The translations under genes were made by a program, and so were the position numbers. The notes under the pieces are model-generated. The model saw only the letters and a program-made list of their open reading frames with translations, was not told the DNA's origin and ran no database searches. 64,000 nt of DNA from Chitinophagaceae bacterium (GTDB lineage: Bacteria > Bacteroidota > Bacteroidia > Chitinophagales > Chitinophagaceae), in contig DALYHN010000001.1 of NCBI GenBank assembly GCA_031970875.1, positions 17,929-81,928 on the forward strand, in the 5' to 3' direction. Positions 268 to 31,103 of this stretch are shown in pieces (the stretch's first letter is position 1; every line of letters begins with the position of its first letter).

Positions 268-291
268 GACACTCGCTTTTATTCCGTAAAA

Positions 292-5150: not shown

Positions 5151-5275
5151 ATGGAAATAATATTTTAAGTGCAAGAAGGCACTTACTGCAAAATACAGAT
5201 TTAGCCTGCTTTTTTAGTGAAATACATCAGCTAATTGCAGTAGCACACTTATTTTCGTAAGTGATGTTGATTTTC

Positions 5276-8200
5276 ATGAAAAAGTATCAAGTATATCCTT
5301 TAGCAATCTTTTGTGCTCTCTTGGTTGCCCTATCCTTAACCCGATGCGGACAAAAGCAAGCAAAACAAGAGTCCGCTCTGTTTGAACTATTACAATCGTC
5401 ACAAACAGGTATTCGCTTTACCAATACACTTACGCCGCGGCCGGACTTCAATATGTTCACCTACATGTATTTCTACAATGGAGCAGGTGTGGGGGCGGGT
5501 GATTTTAATCAGGACGGTCTGATCGATTTATTTTTTGCAGCCAATCAGCAGCCCAATGCACTTTACCTAAATAAGGGCAAGCTTCAATTTGAAGATGTTT
5601 CTGCTCAAACGGGTATACCAAGAGACAGTGCTTGGTCAACCGGTGTATCAGTCGTTGATATCAATAATGATGGCTTGCTCGATATTTATGTGTGTCGCGT
5701 AGGAAACTATGAAATCTTAAAGAGTCATAACCAGCTATTGGTTTGTACTGGTATTCAAAATGGTATTCCGCAGTTTGAGGAGAAGTCGGCTGAATATGGA
5801 TTAGATTTTTCAGGCTTCAGCACACAGGCGGCTTTTTTGGATTATGATTTGGATGGCGACTTAGATATGTTTTTACTAAATCATTCTGTGCATCAGAATG
5901 GCACATTTGGTCCGCGAAGCCAGTTTCTTGGTAAGTATCATCCGCTCTCTGGTGACAGATTATTCCGAAACGATAGAAAGAAGTTTACCGATGTTACTAA
6001 ACAATGCGGTATTGAAAGCTCTGCGATTAGTTATGGATTAGGTGTGGCTGTTGCGGATATTAATTTGGACGGCTGGCCGGATATCTATGTAGGGAATGAT
6101 TTTCACGAGAATGATTATCTCTATATCAATGATCGAAATGGTCGGTTTCGCGATGCTTCAGGCGATATGCTGATGCATACCAGTCAGTATTCCATGGGCG
6201 TAGATGTAGCGGATATCAATAATGATGCTTATCCTGAGATCATTTCTGCAGACATGCTGCCACAGGATCCTTATATCCTGAAACGTTCATTGGGTGAAGA
6301 TGCATATGATTTGTTTAACATGAAGATTCGTATCGGCTATCAGCATCAGTACACAAGAAATAACTTACAACTAAACCGAAAGAATGGACTATTTAGTGAG
6401 GTGGGTAGATACAGCAATGTGTTTGCAACCGACTGGAGCTGGTCCACACTCTTCATGGACTTTGATAATGATGGGAAGAAAGATCTCTTCATTTCAAACG
6501 GTATTCCCAAAAGGTTGAATGATATTGACTATGTGAATTTTGTGTCCAACGAGGAATTGCAGTCGCGCATTAGAACCAGCTCCGTTACCGAGAAAGATTT
6601 TTCACTCATCAATCGCTATCCGGAAATTAAGATTCCGAATAAGTTTTACTTGAATAAAGGCGATGTAGCTTTTGATGATATTGCACCGCGTATCAAGAAT
6701 GACAAACCTACTTTCTCCAACGGGGCTGTCTATGCAGATTTAGACAATGATGGTGATTTGGATATTGTAGTGAATAATATCGCTGATCCCGTAATGATAT
6801 ATCAGAATCAACTAAATGATCAACAGCCTACAACTTATGTGTCAATCAAACTAAAAGGAAGTAATTATAATGTCAATGCTATTGGCGCGCAGTTGCTGGT
6901 CTATCAGCAAAATGAAACACGTACCTATCTGAATTATGCGGTGAAGGGATTTCAATCAAGCATGCAAGTGCCTATGCTAATTGGTATGCAAGGCGCAAAG
7001 CCTGATTCTATCTTGCTTGTCTGGCCCGATCAAACCTATCAGCGTATTCAGTGGAAAGGAGAAAAACAATTATCAGTTAGCTGGCAGAAAGGTTTACCCA
7101 AGTTTGATTTTACAAGATTACAAGCCAAGCCCGCAGCGCTAGCAGAAGATATCACTGCTGCTACTAAATTAGTGTATAAGCATACTGAGAATGATTTTGT
7201 AGAATTCGATCGTGAACCGCTGATGCCTCACATGGTCTCTCGTGAAGGTCCTGCATTGGCGGTGGCGGATATCAATCAAGATGGATTGGAAGATGTATTC
7301 ATCGGCTCATCTAAAACCAGTATTCCGGTGGTCTTCTTGCAAAATGGTGCGGGACAGTTTACACAAATGAAACAACCCGCATTGATTGCTGATTCCGCTT
7401 ACGAAGAAGTAGCGGCGGTGTGGATAGATGTGAACGGAGACAGTTATCCCGACTTAATCACAGCCTCAGGTGGTAATGAGTTTTTTGGTAATGATACACA
7501 CCAACAGCCAAGGTGTTATCTGAATGATGGTAAAGGCAATCTTCGTGTACAGGCCGATGCATTCAACAATGTTTATCTCACCGCTTCTTGTATTGCAGTG
7601 GAAGATATAAACAAAGATGGCTTTCCTGATCTGTTTATTGGTGCAAGAGCTGTGCCCTGGGAATACGGTGCAAGACCAACTTCCTATTTATTACTCAACG
7701 ATGGAAAAGGAAGATTTACGAATGCAACAGCAAGTCTTGCTCCTGCATTGAGTGATGCAGGATTTGTAACTGGTGCTGTGTGGACAGATATCAATGGCGA
7801 CAAGCAAAATGAATTAATTATATCTACCGAATGGGGAGGTATTGATGCATATATAAAAAAGGGCCAATCATATCAAAAGCAATCACTCATCACACAAAAA
7901 GGTTGGTGGCAATTTGTATCCGCAGCTGATATAGATGGAGACGGCGACCAGGACCTGATTGCAGGTAATCTTGGTTGGAACACTCGTTTGAAAGCTAGCG
8001 AAGCTCAGCCGGTGCGGATGTACTATAATGATTTTGATGGTAACGGGAAGAAAGAGCAAATACTAACTTACTATCTTGGTGGAAAAGAAATACCCTTTGC
8101 CAATAAAGCGGAATTCGATAAGAAACTGCCTTCACTGAAAAAGCAATTTCTCTTTGCAGAAGATTTTGCCAAAGCAAGTTTGGATCAATTATTACCTGCA

Positions 8201-8587
8201 GATAAACTAGGTAATGCTGCAGTGTATGAAGCCAATTGGATGGCGAATAGCCTGCTCATCAATGATGGCAAAGGTGGTTTTAGTCTGCAGGCCATGCCTT
8301 GGGAAGCGCAGTTATCTCCTTTTAGGGCTGCTTTTTTTAGCAAAGGAGAAATCATACTGGCCGGTAATTTTTATGAGAACAATGTGGAGATGGGGCGCTA
8401 TGATGCCGACTTTGGTACTCTTTTACAAAGGCGCAATAAACAGTGGGTGGCATCGGTCTTGCCGGGCCTGTCTATCAAAGAGCAAGTAAGGCAGATTCAG
8501 CCCATTTTGATAAAAGGAAAGCAGGCTTTGATTGCCGTGTGCAATGATGCGCCCGTTCGAATATTCAGGCTGCCAAATCAGCGATAG
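5276..8587 (+). CDS. FG-GAP/VCBS repeat protein with central UnbV_ASPIC domain (CRTAC1-like), paralog 2
   Basis: The track ORF starts at GTG 5261. ATG 5276 gives MKKYQVYPLAIFCALLVALSLTRC, a signal or lipoprotein-like sequence. It has 13 clear DxDxDG loops (DFNQDGLID, DINNDGLLD, DYDLDGDLD, DLDNDGDLD, DIDGDGDQD...). The UnbV_ASPIC-like core is AIGAQLLVYQQNETRTY...ILLVWPDQ. Confidence 0.85.
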   Translation: MKKYQVYPLAIFCALLVALSLTRCGQKQAKQESALFELLQSSQTGIRFTNTLTPRPDFNMFTYMYFYNGAGVGAGDFNQDGLIDLFFAANQQPNALYLNKGKLQFEDVSAQTGIPRDSAWSTGVSVVDINNDGLLDIYVCRVGNYEILKSHNQLLVCTGIQNGIPQFEEKSAEYGLDFSGFSTQAAFLDYDLDGDLDMFLLNHSVHQNGTFGPRSQFLGKYHPLSGDRLFRNDRKKFTDVTKQCGIESSAISYGLGVAVADINLDGWPDIYVGNDFHENDYLYINDRNGRFRDASGDMLMHTSQYSMGVDVADINNDAYPEIISADMLPQDPYILKRSLGEDAYDLFNMKIRIGYQHQYTRNNLQLNRKNGLFSEVGRYSNVFATDWSWSTLFMDFDNDGKKDLFISNGIPKRLNDIDYVNFVSNEELQSRIRTSSVTEKDFSLINRYPEIKIPNKFYLNKGDVAFDDIAPRIKNDKPTFSNGAVYADLDNDGDLDIVVNNIADPVMIYQNQLNDQQPTTYVSIKLKGSNYNVNAIGAQLLVYQQNETRTYLNYAVKGFQSSMQVPMLIGMQGAKPDSILLVWPDQTYQRIQWKGEKQLSVSWQKGLPKFDFTRLQAKPAALAEDITAATKLVYKHTENDFVEFDREPLMPHMVSREGPALAVADINQDGLEDVFIGSSKTSIPVVFLQNGAGQFTQMKQPALIADSAYEEVAAVWIDVNGDSYPDLITASGGNEFFGNDTHQQPRCYLNDGKGNLRVQADAFNNVYLTASCIAVEDINKDGFPDLFIGARAVPWEYGARPTSYLLLNDGKGRFTNATASLAPALSDAGFVTGAVWTDINGDKQNELIISTEWGGIDAYIKKGQSYQKQSLITQKGWWQFVSAADIDGDGDQDLIAGNLGWNTRLKASEAQPVRMYYNDFDGNGKKEQILTYYLGGKEIPFANKAEFDKKLPSLKKQFLFAEDFAKASLDQLLPADKLGNAAVYEANWMANSLLINDGKGGFSLQAMPWEAQLSPFRAAFFSKGEIILAGNFYENNVEMGRYDADFGTLLQRRNKQWVASVLPGLSIKEQVRQIQPILIKGKQALIAVCNDAPVRIFRLPNQR

Positions 8588-8620
8588 TTTTGATAAATTG
8601 TATTCGCTTAATATCTACTT

Positions 8621-10648
8621 ATGAAACGATTGTTCTGCTCCCTACTGGCAATTTTATTGGTAGCTGTTGCAGTGGCACAAGATCCTTGGAAGATCAGTGC
8701 CAGCAATTTTGATCCAAGAAATTATTATGGCATCACGGTAGCCAATGGTATGATTGGTATTGTGTCCTCACCTGAACCATTCAAGGTAAAAGATGTGGTA
8801 CTTGCTGGTGCCTATGATCAGTATGGCCGCGGCAGGGTTAGCAATTTCCTGCGCAGCTTCAATCTGCTCAATATGAACCTGGATATTGATGGCAGGCGCG
8901 TGGATGCTTCCACTGCAAAAAATATGGTGCAGGAACTGGATATGCGCAAAGCCGCTTTCACCACTAAGTTTGATGTGGGCGATAAAGCTAGTGTGCAATA
9001 TACTTACTACTCTTTGCGTCATCTGCCTTATACGGTGTTGATGGATGTAACCATCACGCCTAAGAAAGACATCACTATCGGTGGTGCCAGTGTGATGGAA
9101 GCACCGGATGCATTGCGTGATGTACAGAACTATTACAACGAGATTGATCGCCCGCATGTAACCATCAGTCTCCTGACTTCTTCAGCAAAAAGTCCTACCG
9201 GTAAATTACTCATGTGTGCTTCCAATACTTTTCTCTTTGGCGAAGCGCATGGCAAAGAACCTCGTGTGATTCATGAAATGTGGGACAATAACATGCACCT
9301 GCTTAAGTTCAGCAAACAACTGAAAGCAGGAGAGACCTATCGCTTTTCTATTGCAGGTTCATCTATCACTTCTGCGCATCATGATGATCCTTTGAATGAA
9401 GCTGAACGCCTTACCATATTCGCCAAGCTGGAAGGAAGAGATCGTTTATTGCAGTTTCATACCCAAGCATGGGATAAACTTTGGGAAAGTGATATTCAGA
9501 TAGAAGGCGATGCAGAAGCACAGCAGGATGTACATAGTATGCTGTATCATTTGTATTCCTTCGTTCGCGAAGTCAATGCTTTTTCGCCATCACCCATGGG
9601 TTTGAGCGGACTAGGATACAACGGCCACGTATTCTGGGATACAGAATTGTGGATGTATCCTTCACTCTTAGTCTTGCAGCCCGGCATGGCCAAGAGCATG
9701 GTTGAATATCGTTTCAAAAGATTGGAAGCTGCTAAGCGCAATGCTTTCAGTAAAGGATACAAGGGTGCCATGTATCCATGGGAGAGTGCAGAAACAGGCG
9801 TGGAAGAAACCCCGGTTTGGGCGCTGAGCGGTCCGTTTGAACACCATATTACTGCCTGTGTGGGTATTGCTGCCTGGAATTATTATTGTGTAACCCAGGA
9901 TAAACAATGGCTGCGCGAAAAAGGCTGGCCTATCTTACAGGCTACGGCAGATTTCTGGGCCAGCAGGGTAGAGCGCAATGGTCCGGGTAAATACGATATC
10001 AATAATGTAGTAGCAGCAGATGAGTGGGCAGAGAATGTCAACAATAATGCATTCACCAATGCTGCGGCTAAAGCCAATCTACAGTTTGCTACTGAAGCTG
10101 CTAAACTATTGGGCGTTACTGCTGATCCGGATTGGGCGCATGTGGCGAGCAATATTCCCATCCTCAAATTTGCAGATGGTGTTACCAGAGAGCATGCCAT
10201 GTATAATGGAGAAGGTATCAAGCAGGCAGATGTAAACCTGCTGGCTTATCCTTTGAAAGAAGTCACAGACCCCAAAGCCATTAAAAAAGACCTGAATTAT
10301 TATGAAACGCGCGTACCCAATGAAGGCACACCTGCCATGACACAGGCCGTATTTTCTTTGCTCTATGCCCGGTTAGGTGATGCGGATAAAGCCCATCATT
10401 GGTTCCGCGATGCGTACATTCCAAACATAAATCCTCCCTTCAGGGTGATCGCAGAAACCAAGGGCGGCACCAATCCGTATTTCGCAACAGGGGCTGGTGG
10501 TATTATCCAGGCCATGCTAATGGGTTTTGGCGGATTAGAGATCACCCCTCAGGGAATTACTCAGCTGAAATCTGTACTGCCGGCCAAGTGGAAATCGTTG
10601 AAGATCACGGGGGTTGGACCTGAAAAGAAAACTTTTGTGGTGAAATAA
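8621..10648 (+). CDS. secreted glycoside hydrolase family 65 protein (alpha-glucoside hydrolase type)
   Basis: 675 aa with signal peptide MKRLFCSLLAILLVAVAVAQ. GH65 core motifs are present: YNGHVFWDTELWMYP, AAWNYYCVTQDKQWL...ADFWASRV and VVAADEWAENVNNNAFTN (the acid Glu lies in the DE(W/Y) context). Confidence 0.8.
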   Translation: MKRLFCSLLAILLVAVAVAQDPWKISASNFDPRNYYGITVANGMIGIVSSPEPFKVKDVVLAGAYDQYGRGRVSNFLRSFNLLNMNLDIDGRRVDASTAKNMVQELDMRKAAFTTKFDVGDKASVQYTYYSLRHLPYTVLMDVTITPKKDITIGGASVMEAPDALRDVQNYYNEIDRPHVTISLLTSSAKSPTGKLLMCASNTFLFGEAHGKEPRVIHEMWDNNMHLLKFSKQLKAGETYRFSIAGSSITSAHHDDPLNEAERLTIFAKLEGRDRLLQFHTQAWDKLWESDIQIEGDAEAQQDVHSMLYHLYSFVREVNAFSPSPMGLSGLGYNGHVFWDTELWMYPSLLVLQPGMAKSMVEYRFKRLEAAKRNAFSKGYKGAMYPWESAETGVEETPVWALSGPFEHHITACVGIAAWNYYCVTQDKQWLREKGWPILQATADFWASRVERNGPGKYDINNVVAADEWAENVNNNAFTNAAAKANLQFATEAAKLLGVTADPDWAHVASNIPILKFADGVTREHAMYNGEGIKQADVNLLAYPLKEVTDPKAIKKDLNYYETRVPNEGTPAMTQAVFSLLYARLGDADKAHHWFRDAYIPNINPPFRVIAETKGGTNPYFATGAGGIIQAMLMGFGGLEITPQGITQLKSVLPAKWKSLKITGVGPEKKTFVVK

Positions 10649-10668
10649 TTTCATTATTTTCGGATTGC

Positions 10669-11232
10669 TTGAAGAAACTGCTCGCCATATTACTCATTGC
10701 CATGCTAGCGTTCAACTGGTATGGATACGAGCTGCTGGTTAACCATTTGCAGCAGCGTTCGGACAGGCAATTAGAAGCGAGACTGGATGCTGGTGAATAT
10801 GATCAGCAGCAATTGATTGAGTTAAGTGTTGCACTTGATCTCCCGTATACAACTGATTGGGAAAACTTTGAACGTGTAGACGGTGATGTGGTGATCGATG
10901 GTATTCACTACAAATACGTAGAGCGTAAGTATGAGCAGGGACGCATGATTTACAAATGCATTCCCAACAGCGATAAAGCAAGATTACAAAATGCCAGAGA
11001 TGCGTTTTTCCAACTGGCCTATGATATGCAGCGCTCTTCTGATAGTAAGCAGCCTGTAAACAATGCGCCGGCTTTTAAGAAAGCCCTCAGCGATTATGAG
11101 CAACAGATCGAGACAGATCCGTTTAGGATGGTCACTATCAGATCTGGCTTGCTGTACGTTCATGCAGCTGAAGCCTGTGCTGCCGGGCATTTCAACCTCC
11201 CTGCGCAACCGCCGGAAATAAGCCTGATATAA
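10669..11232 (+). CDS. hypothetical protein with N-terminal membrane anchor
   Basis: 187 aa with a TTG start in the track. The N-terminus is MKKLLAILLIAMLAFNWYG. No family was recognised. It sits in a co-directional array with 20-nt and 99-nt gaps. Confidence 0.45.
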   Translation: MKKLLAILLIAMLAFNWYGYELLVNHLQQRSDRQLEARLDAGEYDQQQLIELSVALDLPYTTDWENFERVDGDVVIDGIHYKYVERKYEQGRMIYKCIPNSDKARLQNARDAFFQLAYDMQRSSDSKQPVNNAPAFKKALSDYEQQIETDPFRMVTIRSGLLYVHAAEACAAGHFNLPAQPPEISLI

Positions 11233-11331
11233 ATCATTGTACAGCATACGTACGCTTTGTACGTTGCCTTCAGTTCCATTGTGTAACCGGTGTAGCACCG
11301 GTTGTATTTCTTGAGCGTATAATATCCAGTT

Positions 11332-12657
11332 ATGAAGAAAATTGTTTGGATGATCGCTGTGATCATCGGTATCAGTGCGTGTAAGCAGAATAATGCGTAT
11401 CAGTCTTACTTGAAAGACCCGCAATTGTTTTGTAACACGGTGTACGAATTGAATAATGTGGTGATGGGAAATAATTTCCCGCCGATGATTGCTTCGCGTA
11501 ATTATGGTTATGCAGCAGTAGCGGCCTATGAAGCCATTGCTGCAGGTTACCCTGATAAATATCAAACATTGGCTGGCCAGTTGAATGGTTTGCAACAAAG
11601 TCCGCAAATAGCAGATAAGGAAAATGTATCGGTAGAACTGGCTGCTTTGCTGGCCTATATCAAGGTTGGTGAAGCGGTAACTTTCCCTGAAGGAAGTATG
11701 GGCGATTATCGCGATAGCATTCTGGCACTGGCACGCGAAAAAGGCCTGCCTTCTAAAGTGGAGAAAGCTAGTAAGGTTTTTGCAGACAGCGTAGCGGCAA
11801 TTATTATTCGCTGGAGTAAGAAAGACAATTATGCGCAAACAAGAAGTGCAGAAAAATACACAGTCATGGATGTACCGGGCCGTTGGGTACCCACCCCACC
11901 CATGTATGCTTCTGCGGTAGAACCTGCTTGGAAGACGATCAGACCAATGGTGCTGGATTCTTCTAATCAGTTTATGCCGCCACCACCCATTCCTTTTGAT
12001 ATTACCAATAAGAACAGCGCCTATTACAAGCAAGTAATGGCAGTGAAAAATGCGGTGGATAGTTTAACAGACGAACAGAAGCATATTGCTGCATTCTGGG
12101 ATGACAATCCTTTTAAAATGAATGTGGTTGGACACGTGATGTTTAGTACCAAGAAATTCTCTCCTCCAGGTCACTGGATGAGTGTTGCAGGTATTGCAGC
12201 CAAAACAGCTAAAGCCGATTTTCCGGAAACAGTGTATGCCATCGCTAAAACAGGGATCGCCCTGTTTGATGCATTCATTCAATGCTGGGATGTGAAATAC
12301 AAATACAATACAGTTCGTCCTGAAACAGTGATCAACAAATACATTGATCCAAACTGGGCGCCCTATTTGCAAACACCTGCTTTCCCTGAATATACTTGCG
12401 GACACTCAACCATTTCTTCAGCTGCTGCTGAAGCATTAACCAGTGTGTTTGGAGATAATTTTGCTTTCACTGATTCTACAGAGTTAGATTTTGGTATTCC
12501 CAATCGTTCTTTCAAATCTTTCCGCCATGCTGCGGATGAGAACAACTGGGCACGTTTCTATGGTGGTATCCATTTTCACCCATCTTGTATCGAGAGTACA
12601 GATATGGGTAGAAAAGTTGGCGGTTACCTGGTGCAGAAACTGAAGATGAAGAAATAA
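11332..12657 (+). CDS. PAP2 / vanadium-haloperoxidase-like lipoprotein (paralog 2, divergent active-site motifs)
   Basis: 441 aa with lipobox IGISAC. K-x6-RP is present (KYKYNTVRP). SGH is replaced by CGH (YTCGHS) and SR-x5-H by AR-x5-H (ARFYGGIHFHPS). It carries FWDDNPF and PPGHW. Confidence 0.75.
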   Translation: MKKIVWMIAVIIGISACKQNNAYQSYLKDPQLFCNTVYELNNVVMGNNFPPMIASRNYGYAAVAAYEAIAAGYPDKYQTLAGQLNGLQQSPQIADKENVSVELAALLAYIKVGEAVTFPEGSMGDYRDSILALAREKGLPSKVEKASKVFADSVAAIIIRWSKKDNYAQTRSAEKYTVMDVPGRWVPTPPMYASAVEPAWKTIRPMVLDSSNQFMPPPPIPFDITNKNSAYYKQVMAVKNAVDSLTDEQKHIAAFWDDNPFKMNVVGHVMFSTKKFSPPGHWMSVAGIAAKTAKADFPETVYAIAKTGIALFDAFIQCWDVKYKYNTVRPETVINKYIDPNWAPYLQTPAFPEYTCGHSTISSAAAEALTSVFGDNFAFTDSTELDFGIPNRSFKSFRHAADENNWARFYGGIHFHPSCIESTDMGRKVGGYLVQKLKMKK

Positions 12658-12681
12658 GTTCTTTCATTTTCAAACACTGCT

Positions 12682-13671
12682 ATGAATCATCAGTCTTTGT
12701 GTAAAGACGGAAGGGTATCTTATGTTTCCATCCGTCGTATTGTGCTCGTGCTTATGGTATGTTTGTCGGCAGGCGCCATTCAGGCGCAAACTGATATTGA
12801 TGCCATCATGATGAGCAAACGTAATTTTTGTACAGGTATCATGTATGGTAACAGCAGCTGGACCAATTACTGGGAAGGCACGCTGAAAAGAGACAATGAA
12901 AACCTAGGCAGGGTGTCAACCCAGTCTGTCAGCATCATGGGTAACTATGGTGTGAACAGAAGACTCAACCTGCTTTTTGGTATTCCTTATATTCAAACAA
13001 AAGCTTCTGCAGGCACCCTCAAGGGTATGCGCGGTATTCAGGATTTATCCCTTTGGGTGAAATGGATGCCCATTGAGAAAGAATGGGGTAAGCACACTTT
13101 CTCAGTGTATGCACTGGGCGGCGCATCTGCACCCTTAACCAATTATGCTGCTGACTATTTGCCGATCTCATTAGGACTACGTAGTAAGACATTGTCTTTA
13201 CGCGGTATGGTTGATTATCAGTACGGAAGTTGGTTCACCACATTCAGTGGTACTTATGTGCACAGAAGCAATATCACTATCGATAGGATGGCTTATTATA
13301 CCACCGAAATGCATTACACCAATGAAGTGTACATGCCGGATGCTTTGCAATTCAACTGGCGGGCAGGTTTCCGTGATAAGGGTTGGATTGTAGAGGCAGT
13401 GGCCGATCAATGGACTACCCTGGGTGGGTTTGACATTACCCGAAACAATATGCCTTTTCCTTCCAACAGGATGAATGCAACACGCTTAGGTATCAATCTG
13501 AAATATGAGGATGTTTTTCTGGATGGCTTATCGCTTACCGGTAATGCATTTACAACAGTAGCCGGAAGAAATATGGGACAAGCCAATGCTTTCGCAGCAG
13601 GCGTATTCTACATTATTGATTTTCCTGCTAAGAAAAAGAAAACAAAAGAAGTGTCAACTGAAAAACAATAA
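12682..13671 (+). CDS. putative outer-membrane beta-barrel protein
   Basis: 329 aa with a signal peptide ending AGAIQAQ. It shows alternating aromatic/hydrophilic strand-like periodicity (e.g. YALGGASA, FTTFSGTYVH, GINLKYEDVF, AAGVFYIIDF). A Lys-rich tail follows the terminal aromatic residue. No specific family was recognised. Confidence 0.5.
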   Translation: MNHQSLCKDGRVSYVSIRRIVLVLMVCLSAGAIQAQTDIDAIMMSKRNFCTGIMYGNSSWTNYWEGTLKRDNENLGRVSTQSVSIMGNYGVNRRLNLLFGIPYIQTKASAGTLKGMRGIQDLSLWVKWMPIEKEWGKHTFSVYALGGASAPLTNYAADYLPISLGLRSKTLSLRGMVDYQYGSWFTTFSGTYVHRSNITIDRMAYYTTEMHYTNEVYMPDALQFNWRAGFRDKGWIVEAVADQWTTLGGFDITRNNMPFPSNRMNATRLGINLKYEDVFLDGLSLTGNAFTTVAGRNMGQANAFAAGVFYIIDFPAKKKKTKEVSTEKQ

Positions 13672-13673
13672 CC

Positions 13674-15230
13674 ATGAAAAAAATTAGCATCATCATCAGT
13701 AGTTGCATGGTATTGTTGATCACAGCCTGCAACAAACAACTAGAAGATAACAGTAAGGAATTTCCTGCTTTAAATCCGGCAAGAATAGATGTAAATGCCG
13801 GCACTTGGAAACCCATATTACTCAACACAGCTAACGAGATTGCGGTGCCTGCACCTATGGCAACAGGAACGCCTGATTTTATTGCACAGCTGAGTGAAAT
13901 CAAATCCTGGCAAAAGAATGCCACAGCAGAAGATAAAGCATCACTTAAATACTGGAGCGCGGGTGCGGTATTGCGTTGGAATGAGATTATGCGAGAACTG
14001 GTGGCCAAATATAATTTGCCGCCATACCAGAATCCCGATGGTACCTATCCAATTCCAAGCGCCAATAATCCATTGGCTTATCCATTATTTCCATTTGCCA
14101 ATCCGCCATATGCAGCGCGCGCTTATGCATATGTGAGTGCGGCGCAATACGATGCATTGGTAGCTGCGTATTTCTACAAGCAACAATACAATCGTGCAGC
14201 ACCTTATCAGTTGGATAATGGCATCCAAGCCATGCTACCACAACAAACAACACCTGCATACCCTTCTGAAGATGCGGCAGTTTATGGTGTTACTGTAGAA
14301 ATGATGAAATTGCTATTTCCTGGGGAACAGGCATTTATTCAGCAAAAAGCAGAAGAACACAGAAGAGCAAGACTACTTTCTGGCGCGAATACCAGAAACG
14401 ACTTAGAAGCTGGCGAAGCTTTGGGTAAAGCAGTTGCACAAAGATTTGTGGCAAGAGCCAGAACAGATAGAGCGGGTGCTGCTGTGGGTATTGTGAATGG
14501 AGTAGAATTGTGGCGTGAATTTGAAACGGCTGCTATCAATCAGGGAGAAACTCCATGGATTAGCAGGGAATTACCTTTGCGACCTCCAATGTTACCTTAC
14601 TTTGGTCGTGTGAGGCCTTTTTTGTTTGATTCGCTCACTTTAGTAACAAAGCTCAGACCGGTGCCTCCTCCTTCTACCAAATCTGAACAGTTCAGAAAAG
14701 AAACAGAAGAAGTATTGTTCTATAGTCAGAATCCAACACGCGAGCGTATGCGCATTGTTCATTTCTGGGCGGATGGGGTAGGTACTTATACACCTCCGGG
14801 CCATTGGAATGCAATTGCTGCTGAAGAAATGGTGAAACTGAATTTGAGTGAAGTACGCTGGGCAAGAAATATGGCTTTGTTGAACATGGCTTTGATGGAT
14901 GCGGCGATTGTATGCTGGGATGCAAAGTATACTTACTATAACCCGCGTCCTTCTCAGGTCAATACCAATATCAAGACTTTAACGGGTATCCCTAATTTTC
15001 CCGCATATACTTCAGGGCATTCAACATTTAGTGGTGCAGCGGCAACCATTCTGGGCTATCTGATTCCTACCAAAGCCAACCAATTTAATGAAATGGCTAA
15101 GGAAGCATCCTTGTCTAGGTTATATGGCTCAATACATTACAGGAGTGATTGTGAAGTTGGCCTAACTTCTGGGAATCAAGTAGGTAGTTATGCCATTCTT
15201 CGTGCACAAGCTGATGGAGCAGGCAATTAG
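13674..15230 (+). CDS. PAP2 / vanadium-haloperoxidase-like lipoprotein (paralog 3, complete motif set)
   Basis: 518 aa with lipobox LLITAC. It has K-x6-RP (KYTYYNPRP), SGH (YTSGHS) and SR-x5-H-x3-D (SRLYGSIHYRSD). It carries HFWADG and PPGHW. It starts 2 nt after the preceding stop. Confidence 0.8.
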   Translation: MKKISIIISSCMVLLITACNKQLEDNSKEFPALNPARIDVNAGTWKPILLNTANEIAVPAPMATGTPDFIAQLSEIKSWQKNATAEDKASLKYWSAGAVLRWNEIMRELVAKYNLPPYQNPDGTYPIPSANNPLAYPLFPFANPPYAARAYAYVSAAQYDALVAAYFYKQQYNRAAPYQLDNGIQAMLPQQTTPAYPSEDAAVYGVTVEMMKLLFPGEQAFIQQKAEEHRRARLLSGANTRNDLEAGEALGKAVAQRFVARARTDRAGAAVGIVNGVELWREFETAAINQGETPWISRELPLRPPMLPYFGRVRPFLFDSLTLVTKLRPVPPPSTKSEQFRKETEEVLFYSQNPTRERMRIVHFWADGVGTYTPPGHWNAIAAEEMVKLNLSEVRWARNMALLNMALMDAAIVCWDAKYTYYNPRPSQVNTNIKTLTGIPNFPAYTSGHSTFSGAAATILGYLIPTKANQFNEMAKEASLSRLYGSIHYRSDCEVGLTSGNQVGSYAILRAQADGAGN

Positions 15231-15257
15231 TTTGAATATGTGTAAATTGAGAGATTT

Positions 15258-17456
15258 ATGGGAAAGTTATTGATAATCTTTTTGGTGTGTTTTAACATAA
15301 ATGGTATCGGACAAGTAAATGCTCTGTCCGATACCATCTTTGATGGGGTACAGAATCTAGATAGTGTTTTGGTAACAACAAGATGGTCTGCAGATAAGAT
15401 TAATGCAATGCCATCAGTAAGGGGCACATTTTTATATTCTGGTAAAAAAACAGAACAAATTTTTTTAACTGGCACAAATGCAGATGTTGCTAATAAATCT
15501 GCAAGACAAGTATTTGCAAAGATTCCAGGCGTTTTTGTGTATGATATGGATGGTGCAGGTAATCAGCTGAATATTTCTATGCGTGGGTTGGATCCACATC
15601 GTGGCTGGGAATTCAGTAATCGGAAAGATGGGTTTATTACCAATTCTGATTTATACGGGTATCCTGCCAGCCATTTCTCCATGCCTTTAGAAAGCATCGA
15701 GCGTATTGAGATTGTTAGGGGTACAGCATCCTTGCAATATGGTTCACAATTTGGTGGCATGATCAATTATGTTACCAAAAAGGGAGATACTACTCGCCCA
15801 TTTGCATTTGAGAATATTGCCACTACTGGTTCATATAGATTACTCAGCAATTATACGTCTGTCTCAGGTCGTACAGGGAGGTTCAGCTATTTTGCATATT
15901 ACCAGAAACGTGGAAGACTGGGGTATCGCGATAATGAGCAATCCCAAGCAGAAGCAGCATCTGTGCAGTTAAAATATGCTATTAGCAATAAGTTCACTCT
16001 ACAGCTGGAATGGTCAAGGTCTTATTACCTGTATAGGCTATCCGGTTCGTTAACGGATAGCATGTTTCTCCAGAATCCCCGGCAAGCAAGCCGGAGCAGA
16101 AACTATTACAGCCCAGATATCCATATTCCAGCATTCAGTGCTTATTGGAAACCCTCATCGGCTGCTACAGTTCAGTTGAAAGTTTCTGCTATACTAGGCA
16201 ATAGAAGTAGTGTCCTTTTCGACAGACCCGTGAATATCAGAGATAGTATTAATGTACAGACTGGGCTAATGAATAGTAGGCAGGTAGATATTGACATTTT
16301 TAGAAGCTATACAACAGAATTGAATGTTTTATATGCATATCGTATAGGTCAATTAGCAAATACATTGAGTACGGGCTTACAGTACATTAATAATGACTTA
16401 GGCAGAAGACAATTTGGGGTTGGTACTACTGCCAGTGATTACGATCTTACCATAATCCCTGGTTCCTGGGGTAGAGACATACACTTACTTACCAGCAATC
16501 TGGCATTATTTGCGGAGAATAAAATACAACTCAGCAAGACTTTTTCTTTGAATACGGGCTTTAGAATAGAGCAGGGTACAACGCGTATGCGTGGCCAGAT
16601 TGTTTACTATCAGGCAAATAAACTGCCTTTAGATATACCTAATAAGTTCCCATTATTTGGCATGCATTTTTTGTGGAAGCCTTCTCAGCGAAATACAGAA
16701 TTATATGGTGGAATATCACAGGCATTCAGACCTATGTATTTCAGGGATCTGATTCCTGGTTCTGTATTTGAGGAGGTAGACCCTGCAATCAAAAGCGCCA
16801 AAGGGTATAATGCTGAGATTGGATTCAGAGGTAGTTGGAGGTTTTTAAGATGGGATATCACTGCTTACCAGCTTCGATACAATAACCGCTTTGGTATTCT
16901 TGTAAAAACAGATGCGTCGAATAACCTGATATTGTGGCGTACTAATATCGGTGATTCAAGAACCAACGGACTAGAGCTATTACTACAAACTGAATTTGCA
17001 TTGAATAAACAAACAGGTATTACATTGTTTACTTCCACTGCAATAACAGATGCCAGATATATTTCTGGAACGGCGAGAAGCGGTAATCAGAATATTTCGC
17101 TCAAAAAAAAGTTTGTTGAAAGTGCTCCTATACTGATTTCTAGAAACGGTGTACAAGTGCAGCATAGGATGATCTATTTTCAACTTCTGTACAGTTATAC
17201 AGCATCTTCTTATGCTGACCCATTGAATACAATTGAGCCTATTAAATCCACCGGTGCAGCTGGATTGGTGCCTGCTTATTCGCTGTTAGATGCAGCATGT
17301 TCTATTCGTATAAGTAAAAGTTTAGAAATAAAGCTGAATATCAATAACCTGTTTGATAAGCAGTATTTCACCAAACGACCAACATTGTATCCAGGCCCGG
17401 GTGTATGGCCTTCAGATGGAAGAAACTTCAGCTGTGCAATAACAACCAGACTCTGA
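15258..17456 (+). CDS. TonB-dependent receptor (non-SusC type, no SusD partner)
   Basis: 732 aa with plug-like N-terminus (VTTRWSADKINAMPSVRGTF..., IERIEIVRGTASLQYGSQFGGMINYVTKKG). It has a long beta-barrel and C-terminal NINNLFDKQYFT. Confidence 0.8.
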   Translation: MGKLLIIFLVCFNINGIGQVNALSDTIFDGVQNLDSVLVTTRWSADKINAMPSVRGTFLYSGKKTEQIFLTGTNADVANKSARQVFAKIPGVFVYDMDGAGNQLNISMRGLDPHRGWEFSNRKDGFITNSDLYGYPASHFSMPLESIERIEIVRGTASLQYGSQFGGMINYVTKKGDTTRPFAFENIATTGSYRLLSNYTSVSGRTGRFSYFAYYQKRGRLGYRDNEQSQAEAASVQLKYAISNKFTLQLEWSRSYYLYRLSGSLTDSMFLQNPRQASRSRNYYSPDIHIPAFSAYWKPSSAATVQLKVSAILGNRSSVLFDRPVNIRDSINVQTGLMNSRQVDIDIFRSYTTELNVLYAYRIGQLANTLSTGLQYINNDLGRRQFGVGTTASDYDLTIIPGSWGRDIHLLTSNLALFAENKIQLSKTFSLNTGFRIEQGTTRMRGQIVYYQANKLPLDIPNKFPLFGMHFLWKPSQRNTELYGGISQAFRPMYFRDLIPGSVFEEVDPAIKSAKGYNAEIGFRGSWRFLRWDITAYQLRYNNRFGILVKTDASNNLILWRTNIGDSRTNGLELLLQTEFALNKQTGITLFTSTAITDARYISGTARSGNQNISLKKKFVESAPILISRNGVQVQHRMIYFQLLYSYTASSYADPLNTIEPIKSTGAAGLVPAYSLLDAACSIRISKSLEIKLNINNLFDKQYFTKRPTLYPGPGVWPSDGRNFSCAITTRL

Positions 17457-17497
17457 TTTTAACTAATTTAGGGCTGAGATTGTTTAACCTTACTCAT

Positions 17498-19069
17498 ATG
17501 CATAAGTTACTGCGCGCCTTTGCCATATTATTTGCTTTTGGTTTTATGACGCAACAACCGGTAAAAACTCCGGATCAGCTATACGGTGTGCTGTTCAAAG
17601 ACATTCAACTACAAAGAATATTTCCCGATGGAAAAACCTTTGTGGATTGTGTATCCAAGGGCAAACCGGAAAGTATTGTTGCTGCTTATAAGAAGCAAAA
17701 ATCTAAGCCTGGTTTTTCTCTTAAGCAGTTTGTCGCAGATAATTTTATTCTGCCAGCTGCACCCAAAACAGTACAATATGTGCAACCTGAGAAAGATGTA
17801 GCCACGCACATTAAAAATCTGTGGGGCAGCTTAAAGCGCGATGCAGATAAGCCTGTTGTAGGTAGTAGTTTATTGCCTTTGCCCGGTGCGTATATTGTAC
17901 CCGGCGGTCGTTTCAGAGAGATTTACTATTGGGATTCTTATTTCACCATGCTAGGCTTGGAAGAAAGTGGGGAGGTTGCAACTATAGAAAGTATGGTCGA
18001 CAATTTTGCTTATCTCATCAAAGCATACGGTCATGTGCCTAATGGTAACAGGTCTTATTATCTATCTAGATCTCAACCGCCCTTTTTTGCCTTGATGGTA
18101 GAACTGCTCTCAACGCATAAAGGTGACGTCGTGTATAAAAAATATCTGCCTGTATTGGAAAAGGAGTACGCCTATTGGACAGATAAGACAGCACCTACGA
18201 AACATAATGTTGTGATGCCTGATGGAACGATACTCTCTCGCTATTATGATGCAGGCGATGCGCCGCGTCAAGAAAGCTATCGTGAAGATCATGAGCTTGC
18301 TACACAGCAGGCAAAGCTAGCTGGAGCAGCTAATCAATCGCAAGTATACAAACGAGTATGTAGAGATCTGCGTAGTGGCGCAGAGAGTGGATGGGATTTT
18401 AGTACACGCTGGTTTACAGATAACCAATCAATCGCCACCATTGCTACAACAGATATTATTCCCGTTGACTTAAACGGACTCATGTATCGTTTAGAAACCA
18501 TTTTGGCAAAAGCCTATCAATTAAACGGTCAATCTGCTGCAGCAAAGAAAATGGAGCAATTGGCTGCCAAAAGAAAAGCTGCCATCATCCGTTATTGCTG
18601 GAATGAAGCAATAGGGTATTATTACGACTGGCGCATCAGTACCAAACAGCAAATGACAAATAAAACCATTGCAGGTGCATTTCCATTATTTTTTCAAATA
18701 GCAACTCAAGCACAAGCAATTCGTATTGCGAAAGTGGTAGAACAGGACTTTCTCAAAGCGGGTGGTGTAGTAACGACCTTGGTGCATAGCGGACAGCAGT
18801 GGGATGCGCCTAACGGTTGGGCGCCATTGCAGTGGATGACGATACAGGGATTACGTAATTACCAGCAAAATCAATTGGCTGAAACCATTGCCAAGCGATG
18901 GATTCAGGTAAACACTGATGTATATGCACGCACCGGAAAAATGATGGAGAAATACAATGTAGAGAATACTACATTGGAAGCCGGTGGCGGCGAGTATCCC
19001 GGTCAGGATGGTTTTGGCTGGACCAATGGCGTTTTACTCAAACTCATCAGTCTATACGGCAAAGATTAA
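17498..19069 (+). CDS. treA: periplasmic alpha,alpha-trehalase (GH37)
   Basis: The track ORF 17405 overlaps the TBDR end. ATG 17498 gives the signal peptide MHKLLRAFAILFAFGFM. Trehalase signatures are GGRFREIYYWDSYFTMLGL and QWDAPNGWAPLQWM. Confidence 0.9.
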   Translation: MHKLLRAFAILFAFGFMTQQPVKTPDQLYGVLFKDIQLQRIFPDGKTFVDCVSKGKPESIVAAYKKQKSKPGFSLKQFVADNFILPAAPKTVQYVQPEKDVATHIKNLWGSLKRDADKPVVGSSLLPLPGAYIVPGGRFREIYYWDSYFTMLGLEESGEVATIESMVDNFAYLIKAYGHVPNGNRSYYLSRSQPPFFALMVELLSTHKGDVVYKKYLPVLEKEYAYWTDKTAPTKHNVVMPDGTILSRYYDAGDAPRQESYREDHELATQQAKLAGAANQSQVYKRVCRDLRSGAESGWDFSTRWFTDNQSIATIATTDIIPVDLNGLMYRLETILAKAYQLNGQSAAAKKMEQLAAKRKAAIIRYCWNEAIGYYYDWRISTKQQMTNKTIAGAFPLFFQIATQAQAIRIAKVVEQDFLKAGGVVTTLVHSGQQWDAPNGWAPLQWMTIQGLRNYQQNQLAETIAKRWIQVNTDVYARTGKMMEKYNVENTTLEAGGGEYPGQDGFGWTNGVLLKLISLYGKD

Positions 19070-20985
19070 GCAGGCGTCAACAAACAAAAACCATGTGGCG
19101 GAACAATCAAGTGTTCTCTATCATTACCCACTACATGTTTTTGTCCTGTCCAATGATCTAATAATGTATTACTGGTGAGTTCATGTTCTTTAAACGCATA
19201 CCAGGTTAAATAAGCTGGTGCATCATTAAAATTAAATACGCCAAAGAATCGCTCTGCACCATATTTGCGCACATAAACAGCTACGTGAATATTGTGTGGT
19301 GTTACCCAGGTAATATTACTGCTGTCTGCAATAATGGATAATTGCTTTCGAATGGCTAGGAGTTGTTTGGTGCCGTTAAATATTCTTGCTTCAACGGTGT
19401 TTGATTTTTTTCGCTGTGCATTTTTCTCCCAATCAATGATTGGTCTATGCATCCATCGGTTGTCGTAGCTTTTTCCTGCGTCTTGCAAATAACTATAGTC
19501 ATTGGTATAGCCAATCTCATCACCATAGAACAGCATTGGAATACCACCTAAGAAAAAGCTATGGGCTTGCATCAATAGAATCTTATTAATCGCATCATCA
19601 ATGGCTGCCGCATTATTCGCATCAATTGCTTTCTCTAAACCACACAAAGACGCCAGCGTGCCACTGATACGCGCATCATTGGTTTTGGGATTTACAGAGA
19701 ACAAAGCGCCTGCTGCAGGTGATCCCTCATAAGTGCCGGCATAATAATCTTTCAAAAATCGTCTGTGTTCAAAAGGGTTAAAGCCTGCAACAGCAATCAT
19801 GCTATCATCGTAGCCTAAGCCAATATCGTCGTGGCAACGTGTGTAAGTAATCCAGCTAGTGCCATATGGTTTGCGCAATATCTGCTCTTGTGCTGCCAGC
19901 ATCACACGTGTATCTTTGGTTGCGAGCATATCCCATTGCAACGCCATATGTGTTGCGTTATAAGCAAAGTCACATTCTTTTGCAACAAACTCATCTGTGC
20001 CAAAGTATTTCATGATCTCAGCAGGTGCAACAATGGCTTCGCCTAATAATGCCATACCAGGCGTAGCAATCGTTACGCAACATTTGATGATGCGTAACAA
20101 GATATGTGCTTCAGGAAGATTCTGACAAGTAGTGCCCAAGCGTTTCCAAATAAATGCTGGCGCATCAATGCGCAGAATATCTACACCCAGATTGGCATAG
20201 AAGAAAATCGTATCCAACATGGCAACAAGCACATGCGGATTGGTATAGTTCAAATCCCACTGATAGTTGTGGAAGACCGTCATCACCCATTCCTGTAATT
20301 CAGGTACGTAAGTGAAACTGCCTGGAGCCGATTCCGGAAAAATTTCCGGCATGGTTTGTTCAAACTGATCGGGTAGGTTACGATCTTGATAGAAATAGAA
20401 AAAGTCCTTGTAGAAAAGATCTCCTGCCTTGGCTTTTTCCGCCCAAGCATGTTTGTGCGAAGTGTGGTTCAGCACAATATCCAGCATAAGGTACATCTTA
20501 CGCTGGTGCATTTTGCTTACCAACGATTCGAGGTCTTTCAGATTACCGAAGCGAGCATCTACTTTTCTGAAATCAGAAACAGCATAGCCTCCATCGCTTT
20601 CGTTGGCCGGACTTTCAAAGATGGGCATCAGGTGCAGAAAATTGATGCCGAGCTCTTCCAGATAATCTAACTTCTCTGGCATCTGTTTTAATGAACCAGC
20701 AAAGCGATCTACATACAAGCTCATACCTGCAATTTCATTGGAGAGATACCAATGTGTTTTGGCAGCTTTCTCCTGATCGTAAGCCTGTAATTTTTTGGAT
20801 CGTTGTTGATGCGCTTGAATAATTGTTTTCAGCAGCCCTTCATAAGCGGCTTCTGCTGCAGGATGCCCCTGATACAACTGATGGAACAATCTTTCCAGTG
20901 TTAGTGCAGCTGCATACAATCTGTCAGCAAATGCTTTTTCAGTTTTGCTTTCTGCCAGCAGTGAAGAAACTTTTTGCAAAGACAT
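19066..20985 (-). CDS. amylosucrase-type GH13 (subfamily 4-like) enzyme, cytoplasmic
   Basis: 639 aa with no signal peptide. It aligns by eye with the Neisseria amylosucrase blocks: SDGGYAVSDFRKVD, DIVLNHTS, FHNYQWDLNYTNP, GVDILRIDAPAFIWKRLGTTCQNLPEAH, GEAIV and RCHDDIG. Confidence 0.8.
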   Translation of the reverse strand: MSLQKVSSLLAESKTEKAFADRLYAAALTLERLFHQLYQGHPAAEAAYEGLLKTIIQAHQQRSKKLQAYDQEKAAKTHWYLSNEIAGMSLYVDRFAGSLKQMPEKLDYLEELGINFLHLMPIFESPANESDGGYAVSDFRKVDARFGNLKDLESLVSKMHQRKMYLMLDIVLNHTSHKHAWAEKAKAGDLFYKDFFYFYQDRNLPDQFEQTMPEIFPESAPGSFTYVPELQEWVMTVFHNYQWDLNYTNPHVLVAMLDTIFFYANLGVDILRIDAPAFIWKRLGTTCQNLPEAHILLRIIKCCVTIATPGMALLGEAIVAPAEIMKYFGTDEFVAKECDFAYNATHMALQWDMLATKDTRVMLAAQEQILRKPYGTSWITYTRCHDDIGLGYDDSMIAVAGFNPFEHRRFLKDYYAGTYEGSPAAGALFSVNPKTNDARISGTLASLCGLEKAIDANNAAAIDDAINKILLMQAHSFFLGGIPMLFYGDEIGYTNDYSYLQDAGKSYDNRWMHRPIIDWEKNAQRKKSNTVEARIFNGTKQLLAIRKQLSIIADSSNITWVTPHNIHVAVYVRKYGAERFFGVFNFNDAPAYLTWYAFKEHELTSNTLLDHWTGQKHVVGNDREHLIVPPHGFCLLTPA

Positions 20986-20991
20986 GATGAA

Positions 20992-23290: not shown

Positions 23291-23371
23291 AGCAATCAAT
23301 CGTTTAAGAGGGTGTTGTCTAAAATTAGCTGCCAAAACCCAAATAGGGAGCAGGTTTCCCGCTTTTCTTTT

Positions 23372-23385
23372 TGCAAACGATTGCA
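23372..23385. promoter_or_regulatory. candidate LacI-family operator TGCAAACGATTGCA
   Basis: This 14-mer is 12/14 self-complementary and matches the generic LacI/CcpA-type TGnAAnCGnTTnCA pattern. It lies 82 nt upstream of the transporter ATG. Confidence 0.45.
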
Positions 23386-23441
23386 GTTTGTGGAGGCTTT
23401 GTTTAAGATATCTTTCTAAAAGGTTGAAAGTTTTTTTGATG

Positions 23442-23460
23442 ATGTGTAAAAAATACACAT
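23442..23460. promoter_or_regulatory. perfect palindrome ATGTGTA-N5-TACACAT
   Basis: The 7-bp arms are perfectly inverted. A second copy lies 31 bp downstream. Confidence 0.4.
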
Positions 23461-23472
23461 ATTTGTAGAGTA

Positions 23473-23491
23473 ATGTGTTAAAATTACACAT
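23473..23491. promoter_or_regulatory. palindrome ATGTGT-N7-ACACAT (second copy)
   Basis: The 6-bp arms are inverted, and the 19-bp frame matches 23442..23460. Confidence 0.4.
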
Positions 23492-23495
23492 TCAA

Positions 23496-23523
23496 CGCAA
23501 ACGATTGCAGTAAAACGATTGTA
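23496..23523. promoter_or_regulatory. two abutting LacI-operator-like 14-mers (CGCAAACGATTGCA + GTAAAACGATTGTA)
   Basis: Both share the AAACGATTG core with the site at 23372. They end exactly at the GTG start of the amylase gene. Confidence 0.4.
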
Positions 23524-26415: not shown

Positions 26416-26504
26416 ACAAAACCTTTCTATATAGATGACTCAACAAAAGCAAACAACCCTTCAATCAAATGAAAATTTTCTTGCAAACCAGTAAAACCTG
26501 AATT

Positions 26505-29468: not shown

Positions 29469-29483
29469 TCTTGATAAATTCAG

Positions 29484-31085: not shown

Positions 31086-31103
31086 TCAAGTAAACTGACT
31101 ATT

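Follow-up and report, generated by a model that had tools for sequence, protein, structure and literature searches.

The present analysis addresses an array of eight co-directional genes (G1–G8) in the genome of a Chitinophagaceae bacterium (assembly GCA_031970875.1), in which FG-GAP/UnbV proteins, α-glucoside hydrolases and proteins of the vanadium haloperoxidase (vHPO) fold are encoded side by side. The window, i.e. the entire stretch of 64,000 nt that was analysed, comprises positions 17,929–81,928 of contig DALYHN010000001.1 (forward strand). Genes and other features of the array and its flanks are compiled in Table 1. The array with its intergenic gaps of 33, 20, 99, 24, 2, 27 and 41 nt (from G1 to G8), as described in the original prediction, was confirmed by the coordinates of the open reading frames (ORFs), and the family assignments were borne out (FG-GAP_3/UnbV_ASPIC, GH65, no Pfam match for the 187-aa protein, VCPO_2nd/PAP2, barrel, PAP2, Plug + TonB barrel, and Trehalase). 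The same holds true for the proposed export of all array products, judged by a heuristic that looks for basic residues at the N-terminus and hydrophobic ones thereafter (scored as the highest Kyte-Doolittle mean over 10 residues). N-terminal signals were detected in 8/8 products, and together with those of the divergent genes Gm1 and Gm2 all ten proteins reach means of 2.5–3.4, as compared to 1.09 for the cytoplasmic GH13 protein encoded next door; a lipobox-like xxxC motif is present in five of the ten. If ~30 % of all proteins are assumed to be exported, the chance probability of eight consecutive genes with exported products is ~1e-4. Conservation of the core in relatives represents the stronger argument.

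The comparison covered 162 related loci, for which 80 loci from genomes had been retrieved around G5 and 80 from metagenomes around G3; the proteins of the window were placed on them by tblastn. Only loci with sufficient flank entered the respective counts, hence denominators differ. The source genomes of the related loci originate from soil, freshwater, groundwater and sludge.

Table 1 Features of the gene array and its flanks (positions within the window)
Feature	Position	Strand	Description
Gm2	292–1614	−	vHPO-fold lipoprotein, similar to vanadium iodoperoxidase (VIPO), 440 aa; KX6RP, TSGH, SRX5H; lipobox SLTC
Gm1	1614–5150	−	FG-GAP/UnbV_ASPIC (CRTAC1-like) lipoprotein, divergent from G1; FG-GAP_3 E = 7e-65, UnbV_ASPIC E = 1e-23; lipobox LLAC
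G1–G8	5276–19069	+	Eight co-directional ORFs
G1	5276–8587	+	FG-GAP/UnbV_ASPIC lipoprotein; FG-GAP_3 E = 9e-73, UnbV_ASPIC E = 8e-7
−7 box	8585–8592	+	TAGTTTTG, Bacteroidetes-type TAnnTTTG; overlaps G1 stop, 29 nt before GH65 ATG
G2	8621–10648	+	Periplasmic GH65 kojibiose hydrolase (EC 3.2.1.216, predicted); first gene of conserved block
G3	10669–11232	+	187-aa N-terminally anchored protein, unnamed family; no Pfam/NCBIfam match
Hairpin	11281–11307	+	12 bp, weak U-tract, in 99-nt G3-G4 gap; core AACCGGTG-TAG-CACCGGTT
G4	11332–12657	+	vHPO-fold lipoprotein, Zobellia VIPO clade
G5	12682–13671	+	Small outer-membrane β-barrel (PF13557/COG4313-like); signal peptide ...AIQA/QT (slash, cleavage site)
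G6	13674–15230	+	vHPO-fold PAP2 lipoprotein, 2 nt 3' of G5
G7	15258–17456	+	TonB-dependent receptor without SusD, accessory; Plug + TonB barrel, without CarboxypepD_reg domain
G8	17498–19069	+	Periplasmic trehalase TreA (GH37); PF01204 E = 2e-146, residues 2–512 of 512
GH13, PfkB, MFS	19066–23491	−	GH13 (amylosucrase/TreS-like), PfkB (fructokinase-like), GPH-type major facilitator superfamily (MFS) transporter; convergent with TreA
LacI-type palindromes	23372–23385, 23496–23509		TGCAAACGATTGCA and CGCAAACGATTGCA, near-perfect; MFS / GH13-SusC divergent promoter
Starch-type locus	23524–33143		GH13 (CBM48 and C-terminal sorting domain of type IX secretion), SusC, SusD, SusE, SusF-like

A composite array with a conserved block

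The array is composite. Its conserved block comprises GH65-G3-(G4-X)-G5-G6, with X denoting a further small barrel, and is located in an α-glucoside island together with genes for LacI, MFS, TreA, GH13 and a starch-type polysaccharide utilization locus (PUL). GH65 proteins of the relatives share 74–84 % identity with G2, and the GH65 gene abuts G3 in 56 of 94 loci. The gene directly upstream of GH65 belongs to at least ten different classes (FG-GAP in 13/53 loci, others including SusC, Amidohydro_2, SDR and a family termed c313); since the GH65-G3 junction is kept while the preceding gene varies, the conserved block begins at GH65. Further downstream, G3 precedes G5-G6 in 65/66 loci, G4 is found in 58/66, and G6 follows G5 in all 72 loci.

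Barrel X (~363 aa; PF13557 with 23.9 bits at a cutoff of 22) has its gene located between those of G4 and G5 in the majority of relatives (52 of 85 loci of the first set; e.g., 8870–9961 in locus L001 and 12064–13170 in L085). It is missing from the window, where the gap between G4 and G5 amounts to just 24 nt. Reduced forms of the module are G3-G4-X-TreA, GH65-G3-G4-X-TBDR-TreA (TBDR, TonB-dependent receptor), G3-X-G5-G6 and G3-G5-G6. All of them keep a lipoprotein and a barrel, preceded by G3, so that a vHPO-fold lipoprotein plus a barrel constitutes the repeating unit. A simple tandem duplication of the lipoprotein-barrel pair is unsupported, as G5 and X share no significant similarity. The complete chain of the window, G3-G4-G5-G6-TBDR-TreA, was encountered only once among 69 complete chains. 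The commonest 3' neighbours of G6 are the TBDR (17/77), a LacI gene (11/77) and TreA (10/77). TreA is no more than 10 kb away from G5 in 21/45 loci; for at least one of TreA, GH13, PfkB and MFS this applies to 34/45.

The original prediction of a coherent, undescribed cell-envelope system therefore stands as far as a conserved module tied to α-glucoside hydrolases is concerned, but does not extend to all eight genes. Likewise, the neighbourhood conservation on which it had been made contingent applies to the recurring GH65-G3-(G4-X)-G5-G6 core, not to the FG-GAP genes or to the exact chain. Literature searches (UnbV/ASPIC, haloperoxidase, SusD, PAP2, PF13557, GH65/GH37, Chitinophagaceae) retrieved no paper on such an association.

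Promoters, operators and the FG-GAP flank

Promoter and operator evidence is motif-based and comparative; automatic scans for terminators and sigma-70 promoters did no better than chance and are not suited for Bacteroidota. The motif TAnnTTTG was found upstream of GH65 in 13 of 37 loci, as compared to a background of 3.2 %, and upstream of G3, G4, G5 and G6 in 0–6 % of loci. In view of this enrichment and of the −7 box at the G1/GH65 junction of the window, GH65 probably starts its own transcript, which argues for a messenger running on into the vHPO-fold and barrel genes and for G1 being transcribed separately. The single transcription unit envisaged originally is thereby called into question. 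Also, a terminator-like hairpin does exist between the genes, at variance with the original prediction: the gap between G3 and G4 harbours a 12-bp stem with a weak U-tract, with a folding energy of −29.7 kcal/mol (z = −2.5) for the gap as a whole. The hairpin escaped the automatic scan since some of the T-run is taken up into the extended stem. It is a candidate attenuator or partial terminator. A hairpin with T-run is also present in some orthologous gaps (L033, L037, L066, L070 and L080), not in most; its designation as a conserved element was rejected in light of this heterogeneity. An Rfam scan of positions 1–24000 at E ≤ 1 yielded no match, so that the gaps contain no riboswitch or leader of a known family.

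Upstream of the block, the FG-GAP/UnbV genes form a variable flank outside the conserved core. G1 and Gm1 both combine an FG-GAP β-propeller with an UnbV_ASPIC domain and hence belong to the CRTAC1/ASPIC-UnbV proteins. The match of G1 to CRTAC1 in the PDB (9ETN; E = 5e-11) covers residues 68–204 only. Vertebrate CRTAC1 carries an EGF-like domain; none was reported by Pfam in G1 or Gm1. To the left of the window, the genome encodes SusC-SusD-FG-GAP/UnbV-FG-GAP, and next come, in opposite orientation, a hypothetical protein of 305 aa, Gm2 and Gm1. As SusC-SusD adjoin the FG-GAP genes there, the latter are assigned to the SusC/SusD cluster. FG-GAP genes likewise follow SusC/SusD in locus L085. 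The mirror-image unit on the minus strand was confirmed in this way. The start of Gm2 and the stop of Gm1 share 1 nt (1612–1616), which suggests translational coupling, and the pair recurs in 8/51 loci; it represents the one real link between propellers and vHPO-fold proteins. Pfam scores of Gm2 for PAP2 (25.5 bits at a cutoff of 27.2) and VCPO_2nd are both slightly below cutoff.

Whether all eight genes, FG-GAP/UnbV included, nevertheless form one transcription unit and one system, as originally proposed, has to be weighed against these observations. Co-direction, short gaps and uniform export are in line with a single system, as are the FG-GAP genes of either orientation that 20/51 loci carry in the 10 kb upstream and the coupling of Gm2 to Gm1, by which vHPO-fold and FG-GAP proteins do associate. 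These points are outweighed by the rarity of FG-GAP genes directly beside GH65, their position behind SusC/SusD both in this genome and in L085, the −7 box before GH65, the hairpin between G3 and G4, and the near-uniqueness of the window's architecture 3' of G3, rendering a single system highly improbable.

Several minor observations concern this flank. An N-terminally anchored hypothetical protein without Pfam match is encoded 3' of Gm2 (1–267, minus strand; 11348–12265 in L086), with a size of about 305–313 aa. The c313 family, of similar size and position, occurs in 17 loci beside FG-GAP genes or divergent from GH65. By size and position only, the left hypothetical protein is presumed to belong to this family; no match was obtained between its 89-aa fragment within the window and the representative of c313. 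Among solved structures from outside the bacteria, GH65 is most closely related to human PGGHG (9SD7; E = 5e-67), which acts on collagen as a Glc-Gal-hydroxylysine glucosidase, and G1 beside it matches a human cartilage acidic protein, CRTAC1. A common 'collagen' link was rejected as explanation, the FG-GAP genes being a variable flank, and is probably coincidence.

Sugar-type control of the block is indicated by LacI-type palindromes in relatives (consensus CCGCAAACGTTTGCGG). They are located 69–110 nt upstream of GH65 in eight loci and in the same intergenic zone, within the 5' end of a divergent FG-GAP gene, in five more (13 in total), and directly 5' of MFS-TreA in four. Sites of the type CGCAAWCGWTTGCG lie upstream of GH65, of MFS-TreA and of the starch-type PUL. 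A LacI gene was found in 19 loci, in 11 of which it directly follows G6. As the palindrome precedes both GH65 and MFS-TreA and the LacI gene is often located 3' of G6, the core is probably part of an α-glucoside regulon, sharing its operator with MFS-TreA in relatives. In the window, the two palindromes at the divergent MFS promoter reached position weight matrix scores of 20.7 and 21.7 (best shuffled sequence, 18.9), with no other site of the window exceeding the shuffled range.

A different motif marks the stand-alone G3-G5-G6 triads, where a CRP/FNR-like box (TGTGAT-N4-6-ATCACA) is positioned ~55 nt 5' of the G3 homologue (L025, L027, L035, L036, L054, L058, L059 and L076). Inside the array of the window, no CRP-like box beyond chance was detected. 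Paraflavitalea-type loci have TGTGTA-N4-TACACA in place of the TGTGAT palindrome.

Lipoproteins of the vHPO fold, small barrels and G3

In the PAP2/vHPO superfamily, one set of residues accommodates vanadate in the haloperoxidases or phosphate in the phosphatases. All seven of them (Lys, Arg, Ser, Gly, His, Arg, His) are kept in Gm2 and G6. G4 has retained six of the seven (K, R, G, H, R, H), with the serine replaced by cysteine (TCGH). Among G4 orthologues, Lys, Arg, Gly-His, Arg and His are kept in two subtypes, TCGH with ARX5H (as in the window) and TSGH with SRX5HX3D, and in 69–71 of 71 G6 orthologues KX6RP, SGH and SRX5HX3D are preserved. The vHPO-fold proteins are very probably enzymes rather than mere binding lids. 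Their chemistry, phosphatase or haloperoxidase, is a matter that sequence cannot decide, since haloperoxidases and acid phosphatases share the vanadate-site residues.

G4 matches the crystallised vanadium iodoperoxidase Zg-VIPO1 of Zobellia galactanivorans (4CIT/4USZ) over its full length (4CIT, E = 8e-117, residues 2–439 against 10–449, 44.8 % identity), at variance with the original view that no function has been established for vHPO-like proteins of Bacteroidota; in Pfam its VCPO_2nd/PAP2 match stays below cutoff (17.6 bits). G6 scored 54.3 bits for PAP2 (cutoff, 27.2) and carries the motifs of PAP2 and class A acid phosphatases. By sequence it is only distantly related to Zg-VIPO1 (E = 1e-24, C-terminal half). 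The AlphaFold2 (AF2) model of G6 (mean predicted local distance difference test, pLDDT, of 84.6) has 4CIT as best Foldseek match (E = 8e-13, TM score 0.69), followed by VCPO/NapH and class A acid phosphatases. The latter (PhoC, PhoN, EB-NSAP) match the C-terminal bundle only, and 4CIT is closest to the whole fold. From these phosphatases G6 is distinguished by twice the length, the additional N-terminal helical bundle known from vHPOs, its nature as a lipoprotein and the operonic association with a barrel, and it scored far below the cutoff of the NCBIfam PhoC model. From Zg-VIPO1, with which G4 shares six of the seven site residues in a full-length alignment, G6 the two-bundle fold and Gm2 the motifs, the three proteins differ in being lipoproteins, G4 additionally in its active-site Cys for Ser, and G4 and G6 in their pairing with barrels; the genomes are non-marine, and halide oxidation is putative.

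A true haloperoxidase system would consist of G4, G6 and Gm2 oxidising halide with H2O2 at the cell envelope for defence, antagonism or iodine handling, while barrels and TBDR admit vanadate or halide and glucose released by GH65 and TreA feeds an H2O2-making oxidase. Such a system would agree with the full-length similarity of G4 to the Zobellia enzyme, whose second-shell Cys-Trp and Phe positions it retains, and with the fold of G6 being nearest to 4CIT and VCPO/NapH. Moreover, iodine uptake by the flavobacterium Arenibacter C-21 requires glucose, and glucose oxidase plus haloperoxidase have been proposed to be involved (PMC5064120). On the other hand, no oxidase gene was recognised among the annotated locus genes (window up to ~47 kb) or the 18 commonest neighbour clusters, which are partly annotated. 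The catalytic residues are common to acid phosphatases, the Ser of the SGH motif is Cys in G4, a sugar-type LacI operator regulates the relatives, and the source samples are not halide-rich seawater. Taken together, a haloperoxidase system appears highly improbable. In bacteria, vHPO-fold proteins are abundant, with their chemistry established for only a few marine or Streptomyces members; the present set, apparently under sugar control and coupled to barrels, belongs to Bacteroidota of soil and freshwater and provides a concrete setting for the question of phosphatase versus haloperoxidase.

More than 4000 homologues of G5 originate from Chitinophagaceae and Sphingobacteriaceae, some of which carry PF13557 according to precomputed data; among 21 aligned homologues that were scanned, one matched PF13557. 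In one divergent lineage (L083, 10675–13721), G4 is replaced by a 647-aa ORF composed of a DoxX-like N-terminal membrane part and barrel X as C-terminal part, and a MetE-like gene (Meth_synt_2, E = 3e-10) is inserted 5' of G5, with TreA still located 3' of G6.

The family of G3 comprises 1578 representative clusters, all of ~185 aa and without Pfam model. Invariant residues (alignment A2) are Y44, Y60, E68, Y81, V84, C97 and the PP of a C-terminal QPPE motif, which follows a variable linker. The AF2 model (pLDDT 75.6) displays a transmembrane helix, a four-strand sheet and long helices. A Foldseek search against the PDB revealed no match at E ≤ 0.001, the best ones being g3p and the MCE domain at probabilities <0.45. 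By their place in the block, the G3 family and both barrel families would gain a first functional context.

An α-glucoside island and its possible function

G2 exceeds the equivalog cutoff of NCBIfam NF053734 (1218 bits at a cutoff of 800) and matches FjGH65A (7FE3; E = 5e-283, residues 18–674), and is therefore predicted to hydrolyse, and not to phosphorolyse, α-1,2-glucosides. FjGH65A is the periplasmic kojibiose hydrolase of FjDexUL in Flavobacterium johnsoniae (PMC10316084), a locus with the order SusR-SusC-SusD-SusE/F-GH66-GH31-GH97-GH65. In contrast, G2 has no GH66, GH31 or GH97 adjacent and heads G3-G4-G5-G6. While the branched-dextran PUL of F. johnsoniae has been the sole physiological context of GH65 kojibiose hydrolases, the enzyme here heads a widely conserved operon. 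G8 qualifies as GH37 TreA by its full-length domain, hydrophobic N-terminus and score for PRK13271 (583.8 bits at a cutoff of 560); the score for the equivalog PRK13272 (587.8) is below its cutoff of 941.

G7 has G6 and TreA as neighbours and thus lacks an adjacent SusD, as originally described, yet SusC/SusD pairs are present left of the window and at 26505–31085. Without CarboxypepD_reg domain and adjacent SusD, G7 does not define a SusC/SusD-type PUL. No substrate was assigned to this receptor, its similarity to known receptors being generic (best NCBIfam/PDB matches of siderophore type; YncD/PqqU, E = 5e-8). By gene content and operators, the TBDR, TreA and GH13/PfkB/MFS resemble a carbohydrate utilization locus containing TBDRs (CUT) of the sux type. 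The sux locus of Xanthomonas encodes the LacI repressor SuxR, the TBDR SuxA, the amylosucrase SuxB and the MFS transporter SuxC (PMC1790865). Common traits are the TBDR without SusD beside a disaccharide hydrolase, an amylosucrase-like GH13 and a GPH/MFS transporter, the LacI-type palindromes at the MFS promoter and, in relatives, a LacI gene inside the array. The window differs in belonging to another phylum, in having a periplasmic GH37 trehalase as hydrolase and in lacking a LacI gene, and the sux locus itself is devoid of vHPO-fold proteins, small barrels and G3.

Several components are known already, namely the kojibiose hydrolase of family GH65, TreA, the vHPO fold and the CUT-like TBDR unit. 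What is new is that GH65 is linked, in conserved fashion and apparently under sugar control, to vHPO-fold lipoproteins, small barrels and the G3 family. In the interpretation preferred here, to which even chances are given including the proposed mechanism, the array does not constitute one system but three juxtaposed units. The first would be formed by G1 with Gm1/Gm2 as tail of the SusC/SusD-linked FG-GAP/UnbV cluster, with its own promoter. The second would represent the GH65-led operon, in which G3 is followed by vHPO-fold PAP2 lipoproteins, each paired with a small outer-membrane barrel (G4-X, with X lost here, and G5-G6). The third would be a sux-like unit for disaccharide scavenging, composed of the SusD-less TBDR, TreA and, as cytoplasmic and inner-membrane half, the convergent GH13/PfkB/MFS genes beside the starch-type PUL. 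The second and third unit would share one α-glucoside island with, in relatives, a common LacI-type operator. Mechanistically, small α-glucosides such as trehalose, kojibiose or kojioligosaccharides, or their phosphate esters, may pass the outer membrane by way of the TBDR or the barrels. With their oxyanion-binding catalytic residues kept, the barrel-associated vHPO-fold lipoproteins may cleave off a phosphate-type group or act on it in another way. In the periplasm, glucose would then be set free by GH65 and TreA for uptake by the MFS transporter, and G3 may serve as anchor or organiser of the module in the inner membrane. The uptake and processing of a phosphorylated α-glucoside or of an oxyanion cofactor, as suggested in the original prediction, is possible. 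If the module indeed processes phosphorylated sugars, this would bear on carbon and phosphorus scavenging by the abundant environmental Chitinophagaceae.

Several findings weigh against this interpretation. Substrate, phosphatase activity and a barrel-lipoprotein complex are putative; G4 is, by sequence, closest to an iodoperoxidase and not to a phosphatase, and G5 itself had no significant match in Pfam or in a profile search of PDB sequences. Within positions 1–20000 of the window no LacI-type operator was detected, none beyond chance inside the array, and a search of the window for a LacI gene was negative, so that the regulon link of the window is drawn by analogy with the relatives. Sphingobacteriaceae (Daejeonella, Pedobacter) possess G3-G5-G6 alone, without glycosidase and with the CRP-like box instead of the LacI operator; the module can therefore work without GH65 or TreA. 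Furthermore, almost all loci belong to two families that are related to each other, so that the counts lack phylogenetic independence, and adjacency following internal deletions is expected without selection.

These findings partly coincide with what would be expected from synteny without shared function, i.e. from an autonomous G3-(G4-X)-G5-G6 module, for instance for phosphate-ester scavenging by a specific porin and an acid phosphatase, which is located in the α-glucoside island of Chitinophagaceae through shared ancestry. The stand-alone triads with their unrelated neighbours and CRP-like box, the missing LacI-type operator in the array of the window, the full class A acid phosphatase motif set of G6 and the predominance of one family among the sampled loci are all compatible with such autonomy. 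It is less easily reconciled with the survival of the GH65-G3 junction in at least ten upstream contexts, the lack of a −7 box between GH65 and G3-G6, the LacI operator 5' of GH65 and the LacI gene between G6 and MFS-TreA in many loci, and gaps of 20–33 nt, which fit co-transcription. An autonomous module is accordingly regarded as possible, though rather doubtful.

A more far-reaching version would view the vHPO-fold lipoprotein-barrel pairs plus G3 as an unrecognised outer-membrane device for uptake and processing, which follows SusC/SusD-like logic with a catalytic, oxyanion-handling lid, captures modified (e.g., phosphorylated) small α-glucosides or another ester in Chitinophagaceae and Sphingobacteriaceae and was recruited into the trehalose/kojibiose regulon. 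The resemblance to SusC/SusD PULs lies in the combination of an outer-membrane transporter beside an all-helical lipoprotein with periplasmic glycosidases and sugar-responsive control, and genuine SusC/SusD pairs flank the array. However, the barrels here have ~320–360 aa as compared to the ~1000-aa TBDRs, and the lipoproteins are of the catalytic vHPO/PAP2 fold, not SusD. This version is considered unlikely.

The neighbourhood of the island holds two further observations. Downstream (3') of the starch-type PUL, the window encodes housekeeping functions (YicC, GldH and a two-component system). In some relatives, genes for CMD (AhpD-like), Sugar_tr MFS and DUF3179 proteins are located between G6/TBDR and LacI-MFS-TreA (12696–16345 in L002; 18186–20579 in L085); with its peroxidase fold, the AhpD-like protein might be relevant to the proposed haloperoxidase system.

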